A DNA stretch of 64,000 nucleotides from a phage, in sequence record NC_135731.1; one strand, given 5' to 3'. The notes under the pieces are model-generated. The model made no database searches and was not told where the DNA came from. It saw only the letters and a program-made list of their open reading frames with translations. This document shows, piece by piece, positions 7,017 through 64,000 of the stretch (the stretch's first letter is position 1; every line of letters begins with the position of its first letter). Made by a program: the position numbers and the translations under genes.

Positions 7017-7093
7017 TGGTCTCCACGGAGTGATTCGAACACTCGACCTCCTGATCCCAAATCAGGCGCTCTACCAAGCTGAGCTACGCGGAG
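7017..7093 (-). tRNA. tRNA-Pro (anticodon UGG)
   Basis: Minus sense CTCCGCGTAGCTCAGCTTGGTAGAGCGCCTGATTTGGGATCAGG...GTTCGAATCACTCCGTGGAGACCA; cloverleaf hand-folded, anticodon loop TTTGGGA, encoded CCA. Confidence 0.7.
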
Positions 7094-7104
7094 TATTTAT
7101 AATT

Positions 7105-7179
7105 TGGTGGCCCTGGGTGGAATTGAACCACCGTCTGGCGATTATGAGTCGCTTGCTTGAACCTTCCAGCTACAGGGCC
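7105..7179 (-). tRNA. tRNA with CAU anticodon (Met, fMet or Ile-lysidine)
   Basis: Minus sense GGCCCTG...anticodon loop CTCATAA...GGTTCAATTCCACCCAGGGCCACCA; acceptor and T-arm pair well, D-stem weak. Confidence 0.6.
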
Positions 7180-7180
7180 A

Positions 7181-7256
7181 TGGTGCTGATGGCAGGACTT
7201 GAACCTGCAACCTATTGATTACAAATCAATTGCACTACCAATTGTGCTACATCAGC
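7181..7256 (-). tRNA. tRNA-Thr (anticodon UGU)
   Basis: Minus sense GCTGATGTAGCACAATTGGTAGTGCAATTGATTTGTAATCAAT...GGTTCAAGTCCTGCCATCAGCACCA; all four arms fold. Confidence 0.75.
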
Positions 7257-7262
7257 AAAAAG

Positions 7263-7360
7263 GTGCTAGGTGATGGAATCGAACCATCTATGTATTCAAC
7301 GACTACCTCGTCTATTTTCAGGATTAAAAATCCTCGCCCTTGCCAAAGGGCTTACCTAGC
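7263..7360 (-). tRNA. atypical tRNA-like element (about 98 nt; anticodon unresolved, possibly UUU)
   Basis: Perfect acceptor stem GCTAGGT/ACCTAGC, D-arm GCCC..GGGC and T-arm GATGGTTCGATTCCATC, but about 31 nt lie between anticodon stem and T-stem and CCA is not encoded. Confidence 0.35.
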
Positions 7361-7458
7361 TCAGTATGTTGACCATGTTGCTAGTCGGCGATGACGACTG
7401 TAACATTTGATAATCCGGTTCTGCTTCCGGCTTTCGCTTAATTACAAGGCCAACAATG

Positions 7459-7549
7459 TGGCGGAGAGTAATGGAATCGAACCATCATCGAGTCATCCTC
7501 AATGGGACGGTTTTCAAGACCGCTTGAGCACCATTGCTCCCTACCCTCC
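7459..7549 (-). tRNA. tRNA-Ser (anticodon UGA), type II
   Basis: Minus sense GGAGGGT...anticodon arm GCGGTCTTGAAAACCGT...long variable arm...GGTTCGATTCCATTACTCTCCGCCA; 91 nt; anticodon arm matches E. coli tRNA-Ser(UGA). Confidence 0.65.
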
Positions 7550-7663
7550 TTTATAAATTATACTGATAATGACACTGATTTTCGAGCAGTTAGTGACTAG
7601 TATAAACGACGATAAATATCAATGCCATTATCTGTATTATTTATGCATCTAAAAATATAAATT

Positions 7664-7750
7664 TGGTGGGGAGTGGTGGAGTCGAACCACCCGAGTCGCA
7701 ATGACAATAGATTTACAGTCTACACCGCTACCTCTACGGGATAACTCCCC
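7664..7750 (-). tRNA. tRNA-Tyr (anticodon GUA), type II
   Basis: Minus sense GGGGAGT...TAGACTGTAAATCTA...GGTTCGACTCCACCACTCCCCACCA; 87 nt; anticodon loop CTGTAAA. Confidence 0.65.
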
Positions 7751-7754
7751 AATT

Positions 7755-7829
7755 TGGCACCCCGTACTGGACTCGAACCAGTGTCAACGGCTTAGAAGGC
7801 CGCTGCTTTATCCACTAAGCTAACAGGGT
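7755..7829 (-). tRNA. tRNA-Arg (anticodon UCU)
   Basis: Minus sense ACCCTGTTAGCTTAGTGGATAAAGCAGCGGCCTTCTAAGCCGT...CTGGTTCGAGTCCAGTACGGGGTGCCA; A1:U72 acceptor pair. Confidence 0.6.
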
Positions 7830-50503: not shown

Positions 50504-50719
50504 ATGAAGATAGAAATATTTGGTGGAGCTGACAACACTCGTGGCCTGATTTACCTTGAATTCGATGAATCATACCTGCCAGAGGTGTTAAATATAGACT
50601 CTGTTGCTGAGGCTTTGGGAGTAAACCCTAAAGAACTTCACTCTTGTGCTGAGATTGATGGTTGGGAGGAGACCATGAACATCGATTTTAGTGAAGTAGG
50701 GGATGAACCACTGGACTGA
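50504..50719 (+). CDS. small acidic protein, MKIEI-start family
   Basis: MKIEIFGGADN..., 71 aa, last plus-strand gene before the non-coding region. Confidence 0.4.
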   Translation: MKIEIFGGADNTRGLIYLEFDESYLPEVLNIDSVAEALGVNPKELHSCAEIDGWEETMNIDFSEVGDEPLD

Positions 50720-51480
50720 CACACAATTAGCTGCCTGGCTAAAGTGCTGGAGCACCTATAGCACATCTTTCAACTAAATTTCCTACCACCACAATCACTT
50801 ACCTCCCACACATGACTGTTTGCTTGTTTAGTGAGCAGTCATGCCTTGACATTCTTGTCTATCCTGATAAAATTAAGTTCTTCTCTTTTCTTTTACCGAG
50901 TAATTCGGGTTTTCTGTTCTCTTCGGTTTGAAGGGGTATGGAGATACACCTGAGTGAACAGGGTGAACAACCGAACCATTGGCTATGGCATTAGCATGGC
51001 GAAGCGGACGGGTGACGAAAGAGGGGCCGGAGGACACTAGTCACTGCCATATGATATATGGGTGATAACCTGAAGAGTCTGAATAAGTGTTTAAGTACCA
51101 GTCAGAGGAAAAGGTGAATGGTAGCCGAAGGGGGAGGGGGGTTTCTTGTATCTTTAATTTGTATATTATGCATACACTTGTAAACCAATCTCATCTGAAT
51201 CTGTTTACCACACAAAGTGGATTGAGACAAATATTACCTATTAAACCTGAATTATTTATAGAAAATACCACAACACCACTTAAGTCTTTGATTTTACACA
51301 TAAATCCTACAGATATTCACCCTCCATATTTAACATACTTGTAACATATCCCATACTCTACCTGTCTGATCAATTTCCCCAACCACATCCCCATATTTTC
51401 CCTTCCTGTACTACCCCTGCCCCGCCGGGAGTCCCGTCATATCTGGCTTTCCAGCAAATATCACACCCACAAATATCATT

Positions 51481-51631
51481 GCCTGAAGAGGGTTTCATCC
51501 CATAATACATGCCTTACCTGAAGAGCGCTTCATATACCCCGTAAATTTTTTAATTGACCCCCCTCCCCGCCGCCGGAGAGGTTGGCTTTTCCCACACAGA
51601 CCTGAAGAGTCAGCCAGAAATATCTGAAGAG
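51481..51631. repeat. cluster of CCTGAAGAG direct repeats
   Basis: Four copies ((C/T)CTGAAGAG) at about 51481, 51517, 51601, 51623; two more at about 50422 and 51069. Confidence 0.6.
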
Positions 51632-52189
51632 GGTCCAGTTCTACCCTGTCAGGAGCCGGTAGCGACTGGAGTGCTGCCAGGCGGACGAAATGGGAATACT
51701 TCTCATTCTTATAACAATTCTCAAATATCGAGGCAGTGAGGCAAATTAATAGGTTAGGCCGTTCACACAGTGGCACAACATTTGCAACCTATCTTGTGGG
51801 AGTGAATGAGAATACCTATCATTGTGAGAATAGTTATCATTACGGGCAATTTAACATAATACCCATTATGCGCACCACTGGCGATACATACAGGGATTGA
51901 TAACATGAGTTACTGTTTACACACATAACAATTATATTTCTTACTATTTGTGTGGGATATAGTTAGCAGCCGATAGATTAGATATTGACCTGCGGACTTC
52001 TGACCATCTAGACGTCTAAACGCCCACACAACAAGGCTTATACATACATCGCTGAATGTAAACAGGGCCGCAAAAATGCTACCATACAAGCTTGTAAATT
52101 TTTCATGCAGCACTTGACAAAGAGGAGAAAAACTTGTCTGACACAATATGACTTAATTGCCACAACATGACACTTTTGCACACCTGATT

Positions 52190-52575
52190 GTTTGCATATC
52201 TAATAGTTTACATGGATAACTGTTCACATACTTATCATTTACATGATTGACTGTTTACACAGAGATGATAAGCCATGCCATTCGTTTGCATGATAACAAT
52301 TAACCAGTTTACAATTAACAAGTTAATAATCTTTCGCTGGCTATGCCAGGTGACTAGGTCACCCCTTCAGGTGTTTCTATGACATAATATAAAAGCAGGG
52401 CAACTATTAGCAGATCTATAGTTGCCTTGCTTGTCATGTCATGATTAACTAAATACAAGGCAACTATGATCTGATTAATAGTTTGCAGACAAACTATCAC
52501 GGGGGTGATGGTTACTGCTTTTATATTATGTCGCGACTCCGTCGCGCCATGCCATTCGTTTGCATAGTTGCCTTA
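52190..52575. repeat. complex repeat region (GTTTACA-like iterons, 19-bp inverted repeat, GCAACTAT palindromes)
   Basis: Repeated (A/T)GTTTACA(T/C) and CGTTTGCAT units 52205-52315; CCATGCCATTCGTTTGCAT at about 52273 and 52548; inverted repeat TGACATAATATAAAAGCAG (about 52379) / CTGCTTTTATATTATGTCG (about 52515); GGCAACTAT...ATAGTTGCC palindrome. Confidence 0.65.
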
Positions 52576-53179
52576 TTGTTACGAATAAAACAATTGCATT
52601 GTTAATGATTTCTTATCTTTCTCTTAGTCATCTAATGATTCCAGTCAGTATAGTAATGTACAGTAAACATTAGACGACTAAAGATTTCTCTGTTTATTAT
52701 AACTTACCGTTACAATTTCGGACTGTTTACCAAGAATGTTGACACATAAGCTGATTTATGTTATGCAGTTTACACGAATAATTATTTTATGCAGGTATTG
52801 ACTATTCCGTTATTCCATGGTTGGAATAAATACTTAGCAGACTATAGAATGGTGAGCGTACGTAAATTCTGAGATCTGGCGGCTATAGTTATACTCGATT
52901 TTTCACGTAGAACACGCTTTTGTGAGTGTGTAAGTGTATGACTTATAAAGATTTTTAGTTGTTGACAAGATATTGAAGATGTGCATCAGGTTAAATTTTG
53001 TGCAATAGCGGCATTACGTGCAATCTTGAGAGAGAAAACGGGTAAAAATGGCCCTGCTACCACACAATGAAAAATTATGCAATAGTTATTTTACATGTAT
53101 GTTTGTACAGTGTGTGGGATTGATGGCTAGTCAATTATTCCACTTGCCAGGCTGGGCCGTTTGTGGTAGGAGAAATACA

Positions 53180-53215
53180 GACAAAAAGAAAGGGGCCTTT
53201 TAAAGCCCCTGATAG
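53180..53215 (-). terminator. rho-independent terminator (minus strand)
   Basis: Minus-sense hairpin GGGGCTTTAAAAGGCCCC followed by TTTCTTTTT, immediately downstream of 53229..53648. Confidence 0.55.
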
Positions 53216-53228
53216 TTTAGTTAAGAAA

Positions 53229-53648
53229 TTATAATGATTCGTATATTTCATAGATTCGATTTGCCAGGTCGTTACGGTAGCGGAATTTTTCCTCACGTTT
53301 GATCATCAGATCTTTAAAGCCATATTCTTTAAGCACTTCATTAACTTTATGGCGGCATACCTTCATATTATCCTGTGCGTCACCAATAAACCTGTTGCTA
53401 TGGTGCATGGCTTTAATTTCTTCTTCCAGGACCAGGGCAACTATGCGGACCGGATCAAGCTGATAGGCGGTAACATCAATGCGGCATTGTAAACGGCTTT
53501 TTACGTCTGCCACCGGATATACTGCAACCTCTTCCCCGTCAACATTGACAATAATTAGTTTACCATCGATTTCGAATCCTTTCGCCGCCGGACCGTGACA
53601 AAAAGCGTTATCAAAGCTATATGCCGGATTATTAGATTTAATGTTCAT
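53229..53648 (-). CDS. hypothetical protein
   Basis: 139 aa; AGAGG-type RBS. Confidence 0.45.
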   Translation of the reverse strand: MNIKSNNPAYSFDNAFCHGPAAKGFEIDGKLIIVNVDGEEVAVYPVADVKSRLQCRIDVTAYQLDPVRIVALVLEEEIKAMHHSNRFIGDAQDNMKVCRHKVNEVLKEYGFKDLMIKREEKFRYRNDLANRIYEIYESL

Positions 53649-63231: not shown

Positions 63232-63469
63232 GATTTTTTATCCTCTTTGTTAATTAGTGCGGTGTTGTTCACCTTGCGATAATAAGAATAACAAGAACTG
63301 CCCGAGCTGTCAACCATTATGTAAAATTATTTTTTGGGTAGAATTCTCCAGCCGCCACCCCCTGCCAGGTTTGCAAGCTTTCACTCTCCCACCTGGTCAG
63401 TTAGGTCCTGCTAGGGCTGGCCCCGCCAGGTTGCAGCGGTTGACGCACTATGTTAGAAAAATTTTTTGA

Positions 63470-63730
63470 AAAGTGTTGACAACGGCCCCACCAGGTGGCA
63501 CAATATACATATCGAAAGGACGGCAGGCACCGGTGACGGGGGAGACAACCACCGGGGATGGGCGCTGCATAAAATGAGAACGGTTATCATTATCATTTAA
63601 AAATTTATGCAAAAAGTCCTTGCTTTCTTTGTCCTGTGTGATACTATAATAACAAGCCGGGGCAGTAGGGGCCGGGAGACAATCACCGGGCCTGCCCGTT
63701 ATTCTGCAAACGAGAATGATTATCATTCAA
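63470..63730 (+). repeat. two tandem promoter-plus-structured-GC units (possible small RNA genes)
   Basis: Unit 1: TTGACA...CACAAT then GGCAGGCACCGGTGACGGGGGAGACAACCACCGGGG...GAGAACGGTTATCATTATCATT; unit 2: TTGCTT...TATAAT then GGGGCAGTAGGGGCCGGGAGACAATCACCGGGCC...GAGAATGATTATCATT. Confidence 0.4.
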
Positions 63731-63829
63731 AATTCTAAATGAGAACTCCTCGCATTTAATAAATTTAATTAGCATGCTAATTACCCTCCGTAACAATTTC
63801 CTATAAAACAGTATCCCATAAAATATTCC

Positions 63830-64000
63830 CATATAGAAATTTTAAAAATCCATTTCTGAAAACGAAAAATCGATTTCGTCCCCAAAAATTTTAGGTCGAG
63901 AGCCGGAACGATTTCCAGAAAATCCGATTCAGAAAACGAAAAACAAATCGAGTACTGAGAAATTTATCGAGAAAAATTTTCAGAAAATTCAATCTTTGAA
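63830..64000. repeat. AT-rich tandem direct repeats at window end
   Basis: Recurring TTTCTGAAAACGAAAAATCGATTT / TTCAGAAAACGAAAAACAAATCGAG / TTTTCAGAAAATTCAA units. Confidence 0.5.

Follow-up and report, generated by a model that had tools for sequence, protein, structure and literature searches.

The concatemer junction of phage T7 comprises a 160-bp terminal repeat flanked by the SRL/SRR arrays of imperfect CCTAAAG heptamers, and a nearby promoter directed towards the junction, as was reportedly described by Dunn & Studier in 1983 and by Chung and Hinkle in 1990. Beyond T7, the recognition, cutting and duplication of genome ends in large myoviruses that have short terminal repeats are poorly understood. 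In the subfamily Vequintavirinae, direct terminal repeats (DTRs) have been published for several phages: of 458/459 bp in vequintaviruses (459 bp in Gotham; PMC6563267, PMC7471380), those of EdH4 and HdK5 being 458 bp long (PMC6563267); of 514 bp in Klebsiella phage KPP-1 (Mydovirus), assigned by PhageTerm to the T7-type class, with twofold read coverage (PMC9862379); and of 443 bp in PBES-2, another member of the subfamily (PMC5557969). The genome paper of rV5, in turn, reported 'no observable ORFs' (open reading frames) at positions 104013-106618, drawn on its map as a grey 'non-coding' box without a function (2013; PMC3606486). Here we consider the counterpart of this box, a gene-free 2.5-kb region at positions 50720-53230 of a 64,000-nt stretch of phage DNA (record NC_135731.1), which as a whole is called the window below.

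The 3 kb around the region are 100% identical to Escherichia phage phiWec196 (LC739542.1), an rV5-like phage of the genus Vequintavirus, and are matched at 92-95% identity by approximately 120 rV5-like Vequintavirus phages, whereas a blastn search at the 'distant' sensitivity yielded no relative of the region outside this genus. Among the matching records are 19 GenBank entries (MG0656xx) labelled 'Campylobacter phage' with C. jejuni as the host, which are 93-96% identical to the E. coli vequintaviruses across the region; this host label looks doubtful. As shown below, comparison with deposited sequences makes it very probable that we are dealing with the place where a Vequintavirus genome has its terminus (concatemer junction). 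The terminus is already known for relatives, scattered over the literature and GenBank, but the phiWec196 record does not show it. In the literature, the coverage of which was incomplete, we found no paper linking the DTR to the rV5 non-coding box, nor one describing the arrays, the palindrome, the conserved block or the Fur-like boxes considered here.

Positions 51680 and 52138 coincide exactly with the first or last base of at least eight independent GenBank records, all from close relatives. For Gotham, HdK5, EdH4, YN3, ECP2309 and bov11CS3, the first base of the record corresponds to 51680; the counterpart of 52138 is the first base of the Pr121LW record and the last base of the ECP2303 record. 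The repeat_region annotated in Gotham (1-459 and 136567-137025) maps to window positions 51680-52138, and five GenBank records carry this segment at both ends. As the ends are fixed at these two positions, each end of the virion DNA would carry the 459 bp between them, which thus form a DTR. The same segment with the same boundaries is found in phiWec196, where it is 95.7-97% identical to the repeats of EdH4, HdK5 and Gotham; both boundaries are intact (GTGCTGCCA^GGCGGACG at 51671-51687 and CTTGTC^TGACAC at 52133-52144; here and below ^ marks the cut). In contrast to the published DTR phages, the phiWec196 record, like most, is permuted, and the repeat is present in it once and unannotated. 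In 119 records the DTR is 95-97.6% identical, compared with 88-94% for the region as a whole.

If the DNA were packaged by the T7-type mechanism, both virion ends would be at fixed nucleotide positions common to independent isolates; vice versa, headful (pac) packaging would produce one fixed start and variable downstream ends. We observe the former pattern, as both boundaries are fixed in independent records, and the packaging or terminal signal that a preliminary description of this DNA had listed among several options is in agreement with the mapping of the DTR and both virion ends of close relatives inside the region.

Several points weigh against this assignment. The ends of phiWec196 are assigned by homology, its DTR being 95.7-97.6% identical to those of phages with mapped ends. 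In an alignment of 14 genomes, on which all our statements about the anatomy within the genus are based, the arrays at the right cut show the lowest conservation anywhere in the region (52120-52370; 47-76% identity, many indels). The binding of terminase to the repeat arrays is something we infer. Finally, the rV5 genome was called circularly permuted (PMC3606486), and in a 2026 paper PhageTerm classified another vequintavirus as 'headful, partial permutation', though CheckV flagged a DTR. The latter two statements are based on assembly circularity or on a single PhageTerm run, and the same ends in eight records outweigh them.

DTRs are known to arise through extension at staggered nicks (PMC5557969). 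For phiWec196, a T7-type variant of this mechanism may be envisaged by analogy. Head-to-tail concatemers would contain the DTR once per junction, and terminase would recognise signals around the DTR and make staggered cuts at both fixed boundaries; the DTR would then be duplicated through extension of the 3' ends, resulting in a copy at each end of the packaged genome.

Two records deviate from the usual arrangement. In Shigella phage CM1 (L037, MK962749.1), the terminal repeat together with 64 nt downstream of it appears twice in tandem at an internal position, and in Escherichia phage I29 (ON286975.1) the repeat is matched over 1,052 bp in two pieces. Both duplications are probably assembly artefacts of terminal redundancy.

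Table 1. Features of the putative terminus region and its borders, in window coordinates (^, position of the cut).
Feature	Coordinates	Strand	Details
Sigma-70-type promoter	50846..50873	+	TTGACA, 16-nt spacer, TAAAAT; extended -10 TGaTAAAAT; points to the DTR
Hyperconserved block, candidate structured non-coding RNA of ~270 nt	50880..51150	+	97-100% identity, 14 genomes
C-rich, G-poor spacer	51200..51600	+	GC skew -0.33 to -0.78; two AAATATCA words (51456, 51471)
Same-strand (C)CTGRAGWG array just left of the left cut	51482..51673	+	51482, 51517, 51601, 51624, degenerate 51666
Left virion end, left terminase cut	51679..51680	no strand	GTGCTGCCA^GGCGGACG; six records start here
DTR, 459 bp	51680..52138	no strand	Gotham annotation; one copy in the permuted phiWec196 assembly
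Fur-box-like 7-1-7 palindromes TGAGAAT-N-ATTCTCA	51691..51841	no strand	51691-51705, 51709-51723, 51807-51821, 51825-39
Subfamily-wide 27-mer ATTTAACATAATACCCATTATGCGCAC	51849..51875	+	3' part TTATGCGCA matches 8/9 of the DnaA-box consensus
Right DTR boundary and right virion end	52113..52139	no strand	CTTGACA-purine-rich-CTTGTC^TGACAC; cut between 52138/52139
TGACAY(AAT) tandem array	52139..52180	+	period ~10; begins directly behind the right cut; hypervariable
(A)CTGTTYACRY iterons ('GTTTACA')	52174..52315	+	period 15-16
20-mer GCCATGCCATTCGTTTGCAT, two copies	52272..52291 and 52546-52565	+	second copy directly after the GC clamp
Conserved palindromic element	52381..52532	no strand	18-nt perfect arms 52381-98 and 52515-32, 116 nt apart
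GC clamp	52533..52548	+	hairpin GCGAC-TCC-GTCGC, then GCC; GTCGC..N..TCGCGCC kept across genera
AT-rich stretch	52570..52800	no strand	lowest GC of the region, 28-31% at 52600-52799
Intrinsic terminator closing the minus-strand gene array	53191..53210	-	8-bp stem, 5 GC pairs, then TTCTTTTTGT

The DTR is accompanied by short repeated words on both sides (Table 1). To the left of it, the preliminary description counted six copies of CCTGAAGAG; the repeat is real, but only five copies are exact (50422, 51069, 51482, 51517, 51601), as the sixth, CTGAAGAG at 51624, has lost the first C. A degenerate variant, CTGGAGTG, is found at 51666. In the whole window there are eight exact copies of CCTGAAGAG versus 0.43 expected, and the three copies outside the region correspond to Pro-Glu-Glu codons within genes. 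The array copies at 51482, 51517 and 51601 are invariant in the genus, the copy at 51624 varies, and there are indels between the last copy of CCTGAAGAG and the left cut. The C-rich spacer overlapping the array may serve as a Rho-utilisation tract. Three other explanations for this part of the region were considered and rejected: a hammerhead-like core at CCTGAAGAG, as Rfam finds no ribozyme; a role of CCTGAAGAG as a -35-type promoter box, as its spacing to -10-like hexamers is inconsistent; and conserved pairing of a G-run with a C-run (12-nt complement, 51131-42 and 51557-68), as within the genus the C-run is variable and the G-run constant.

On the right side, the TGACAY array comprises 3-6 copies, the sequence of which differs among members of the genus, and the number of the CTGTTYAC iterons in the relatives ranges from 2 to 11. 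The run of GTTTACA-like iterons noted initially was recovered as six copies of KTTYRCAY, all on the plus strand, within 118 nt (52174-52291) and with phasing of approximately 16 nt; in the window as a whole this word is not enriched (57 copies vs 47.7 expected). Given the low identity of the segment at 52120-52370, the iterons are considered real but fast-evolving. The boundaries and the DTR are kept, and in the arrays right next to them the copy number is hypervariable. The CCTGAAGAG-type words and the TGACAY and CTGTTYAC arrays are the most likely candidates for loading sites of terminase or its small subunit.

A similar layout is observed in other genera of the subfamily. The motifs of KPP-1, A73 and phiWec196 were compared by eye. 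The left-junction motif GTGCT..^G.CGGAC is common to all three phages, the junction itself reading GTGCTA^GACGGAC in KPP-1 and GCTGCCA^GGCA in A73; the right-junction motif (TTGACA, a purine run and TTGT(C/G/T)^T) is conserved across genera. In agreement with homologous boundaries, one IMG/VR contig starts exactly with GACGGAC (L030) and ends exactly with ...AAAAGTGTT (L021). Both KPP-1 and A73 also have two AAATATCA words and a C-rich tract to the left of the cut, and the 27-mer inside the repeat. Analogous arrays to the left of the cut consist of five CCACAGAG copies in A73, of CTGAAGKG in KPP-1, and of CCTGAAGAG/CCTAAAGAG in the L041 lineage. Like in phiWec196, the KPP-1 repeat is situated between converging small-gene arrays.

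Two further observations concern the area to the left of the left cut in individual loci. L041 (IMGVR_UViG_3300045988_140627), from the sister lineage, has an insertion between the CCTGAAGAG array and the conserved RNA-like block described below, namely, a gene on the opposite strand (1818-2528) for a 236-aa HNH_3 homing endonuclease (E = 2e-17). In some genera (L011 and L021), the bases before the cut read ...TCTGATCTGTTA^GACGGAC and contain ATCTGTT, the class II pause signal of the T7 RNA polymerase at the T7 concatemer junction; as these phages have no T7-type polymerase, this match is probably a coincidence.

The likeness to the T7 junction concerns the layout: in both cases the DTR is short and exact and its ends are fixed, short repeats in tandem adjoin both boundaries on the outside, and a promoter is directed towards the repeat; in addition, CCTGAAGAG (or CCTAAAGAG in A73 and L041) resembles CCTAAAG. 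Unlike T7, the phages considered here are myoviruses of approximately 137 kb that lack a phage RNA polymerase. Their left and right arrays use different words, and their repeat, which has three times the length of that of T7, contains Fur-like and DnaA-like boxes and is accompanied by a large conserved palindrome inside the left end.

This palindromic element had been described as a 19-bp perfect inverted repeat; the repeat is present, its arms being 18 nt long (52381-52398 and 52515-52532). It encloses hairpins of GCAACTAT/ATAGTTGC and a hairpin AACTATCAC-GGGG-GTGATGGTT. The internal palindromes reported earlier were all found again, as five GCAACTAT/ATAGTTGC copies at 52400, 52418, 52460, 52478 and 52564. 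Within the genus the element is 97-100% conserved, with a predicted folding energy of -47.7 kcal/mol as single-stranded DNA. A perfect inverted repeat of 16-22 nt with differing arm sequences is observed to the right of the DTR in all 14 lineages (14/14); its distance from the left end, inwards, is approximately 110-400 nt, its loop comprises 71-204 nt, and it is followed by GTCGC..N..TCGCGCC. For single-strand folds of the palindromic elements compared with shuffles we obtained z = -11.6 (phiWec196), -9.3 and -5.8. All 268 arm pairs (268/268) in the 14 lineages are Watson-Crick and none is G-T, and this lack of wobble pairs points to a constraint at the DNA rather than the RNA level.

The duplicated 19-mer of the preliminary description is indeed a duplication, although of a 20-mer, GCCATGCCATTCGTTTGCAT, which is kept in all members of the genus (52272 and 52546). 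Other genera have their own lineage-specific word of 15-20 nt at the same two places around the palindrome, and AT-rich tracts equivalent to that of phiWec196 follow the clamp in KPP-1 and in the L041 lineage. The idea that the 20-mers are target-site duplications of a transposon-like element was rejected, as the copies do not abut the inverted-repeat arms. The AT-rich tract may serve replication initiation or end processing.

At the left side of the region, a promoter scoring 11/12 with TG precedes a block of extreme conservation (Table 1), more conserved than the flanking genes (88-96% identity) and found in 117 of the 118 vequintavirus records at 96.4% identity or higher. The block has a CU-rich leader at its 5' end and a small 5' hairpin with a U-run behind it; it also contains a tandem pair of GTGAACA words (50954, 50963), which are reverse complements of the iteron, one CCTGAAGAG copy (51069), and the G-run (51130-51141). 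A sister lineage (L040-L042 and metagenome contigs) with identity of only about 75% retains the -10 element as TGcTATAAT. In this lineage the pairing in the 5' hairpin is retained across three double substitutions, the CU-rich 5' end is still opposite the G-rich 3' end, and in a long-range 7-bp stem UAUGGCA/UGCCAUA is replaced by UAUCGCA/UGCGAUG, that is, by a GC-to-CG swap. The block had no match among 5,426 E. coli genomes, a metagenome scan for it yielded the same two lineages only, and the terminus loci of other genera gave no match to its covariance model.

The DTR itself contains two types of boxes. Four of the nine window matches to TGAGAAT-N-ATTCTCA with at most two mismatches cluster in it, and the 27-mer pattern is found in 21 IMG/VR loci on contigs of 120-152 kb from several genera. 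In addition, two apparently unrelated contigs, L014 (IMGVR_UViG_3300026097_000876, 262 kb) and L029 (IMGVR_UViG_3300007609_000041, 44 kb), have related copies of the 27-mer (ATTTAACATAATA..ATGCGCAC) amid eight DnaA boxes, an origin-like arrangement, where the only Pfam hit in the adjacent ORFs was an AlgH-like protein. This suggests that the 27-mer is a site for a host factor or an initiator.

What else could explain a long gene-free region at this position? If it were a divergent control region driving both flanking gene arrays, these arrays would be transcribed away from it. The large size of this gap between gene blocks of opposite orientation is in line with this option, which had been considered in the preliminary description together with divergent orientation of the blocks. 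However, the blocks converge: the left one, on the plus strand, ends at 50719, and the right one, on the minus strand, has its stop at 53229. Since both are read into the region, and the minus-strand array is closed by a terminator (Table 1), as the rV5 authors also expected terminators rather than promoters here (PMC3606486), divergent control has hardly any chance of being correct. Equally improbable is the presence of unannotated small protein-coding genes. Hypothetical ORFs are indeed annotated here in several GenBank records, but their position and strand are inconsistent between the records, and the largest ORFs of the region, of 85, 93, 61 and 78 aa, are intact in 1/13, 0/13, 0/13 and 7/13 related genomes, respectively, compared with 11-12/13 for the flanking control genes, while in the sister lineage frameshifts disrupt the ORFs of the hyperconserved block. 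Thus, no conserved ORF is found in these 13 relatives, and the initial impression that no convincing ORF spans the region holds. A much stronger candidate is a structured non-coding RNA gene of approximately 270 nt, formed by the promoter at 50846 and the block at 50880-51150, which might be independent of the terminus or auxiliary to it, acting, for example, as a regulator, a primer or an end-processing factor; we consider it almost an even bet, with the balance slightly against it. The block has what is generally expected of a non-coding RNA gene, that is, a strong extended -10 promoter of its own, conserved even in the sister lineage, conservation above that of the coding neighbours together with universal occurrence in the genus, and no coding potential, as the two lineages differ by a 5-nt indel and by further breaks of the reading frame. 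In the consensus structure 99.2% of the cells are paired, compared with 51-60% in slid controls, and double changes are seen in nine pairs versus 0-3 in the controls, these numbers coming from effectively two independent lineages and from a structure derived from the same alignment; many of the U-G pairs are compatible with the plus strand only. On the other hand, the fold energy of the block is no better than that of shuffles on either strand (z = -0.77), no clear terminator is seen, and the search of the region against Rfam 15 at permissive thresholds produced only hits far below the gathering cutoffs, among the best, for example, suhB (22.5 vs 41 bits, on the terminator hairpin) and sR1 (11 vs 45). 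Extreme conservation could equally reflect protein binding at the DNA level, and as the block carries two GTGAACA words and one CCTGAAGAG, such binding could explain a part of it.

A replication origin, besides or instead of the packaging signals, is possible but on balance not favoured. In this scenario an initiator would bind the phased iterons and the lineage-specific words, the palindrome and the clamp would position it, and the AT-rich tract would unwind, possibly with the help of the host DnaA. Similarly to the iteron origins (lambda ori, plasmid oriV), the region has phased direct repeats next to an AT-rich element, here the GC minimum just past the palindrome, to which one may add the perfect palindrome kept in 14 lineages, the lineage-specific words repeated around it, and a peak of the cumulative GC skew. 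In the L041 sister lineage, four DnaA boxes are found inside the DTR versus 0.07 expected, and three of these are perfect TTATCCACA, and the 27-mer ends in a DnaA-box-like 9-mer and recurs beside DnaA boxes in L014 and L029. In phiWec196, unlike these loci, the DTR contains no canonical DnaA box, the only one, TTTTGCACA at 52174, being outside of it, and the DnaA-box hypothesis was rejected for this phage. Moreover, the iterons, unlike those of known origins, are hypervariable and form the least conserved segment, no initiator gene was identified nearby, and the GC skew switches at the same place where gene orientation changes, as noted by the rV5 authors (PMC3606486). The 150-nt palindromic element resembles the hairpins of plasmid sso/ssi and of the phiX/G4 type in its strong single-strand fold and compensatory change across genera, but differs from them by the fully Watson-Crick arms and by the position fixed relative to the genome end. 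Finally, the palindromes in the DTR could be operators for the host Fur or for a phage regulator of the same specificity, coupling terminus-proximal activity to iron. Apart from their clustering in the DTR, this is suggested by similar boxes in a second promoter-rich intergenic region (63570-63730) and by matches of 17/19 in the DTRs of another genus (L018, L031) to the 19-bp E. coli Fur consensus, GATAATGATAATCATTATC. The sites in the phiWec196 DTR match it only at 13-14/19 positions, and AT-rich palindromes are common, with 56 matches of at least 13/19 in the window versus approximately 26 in shuffles, which makes regulation by Fur unlikely. We retain the genome terminus as the preferred reading.

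Some features outside the terminus should also be mentioned. The 139-aa gene directly to the right of the region (53229-53648, minus strand) is absent from approximately 38% of the 13 other vequintavirus genomes aligned, and in the genomes without it the non-coding region adjoins an 87-aa gene. No Pfam domains were found in the proteins flanking the region. As the 139-aa gene is missing in many relatives and has no Pfam domain, it appears to be an accessory gene beside the genome end. Another gene-poor, promoter-rich region at window positions 63300-64000 has TTGACA...ACAATAT with an extended -10 element (TGATACTATAAT), two copies of GGGAGACAAnCACCGGG within GC-rich hairpin-like segments, and the best Fur-consensus matches of the window (16/19 at 63576 and 15/19 at 63712); small RNAs or a cluster of regulated early promoters may be located there. 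The window also contains a cluster of seven tRNA genes (7017-7829, minus strand), in one of which (7262-7360) ARAGORN calls a 4-base anticodon (atcc) and assigns no identity.

If the terminus is placed correctly, the 2.6-kb 'non-coding' box drawn on rV5-type maps since 2013 gains a function, namely, that of the true genome ends. Most of the approximately 120 related records, including phiWec196, were deposited in permuted form, and two carry the repeat twice in tandem, while correct ends are needed for genome comparisons, and engineering of phages that are candidates for therapy must leave the terminus undisturbed. A bolder view, which we put forward as a speculation and consider rather doubtful, is that the terminus is a composite cis-acting module, where the RNA directed towards the DTR and/or the palindrome would act in end processing, repeat duplication or priming, and the host-factor boxes inside the repeat, Fur-like ones and, in a sister lineage, those of DnaA, would couple it to host physiology. 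The conserved block, the palindrome and the Fur-like boxes, apparently undescribed so far, are cheap and well-defined targets for experiments; while the terminus itself is ordinary, the block and the palindrome are most worth the effort.

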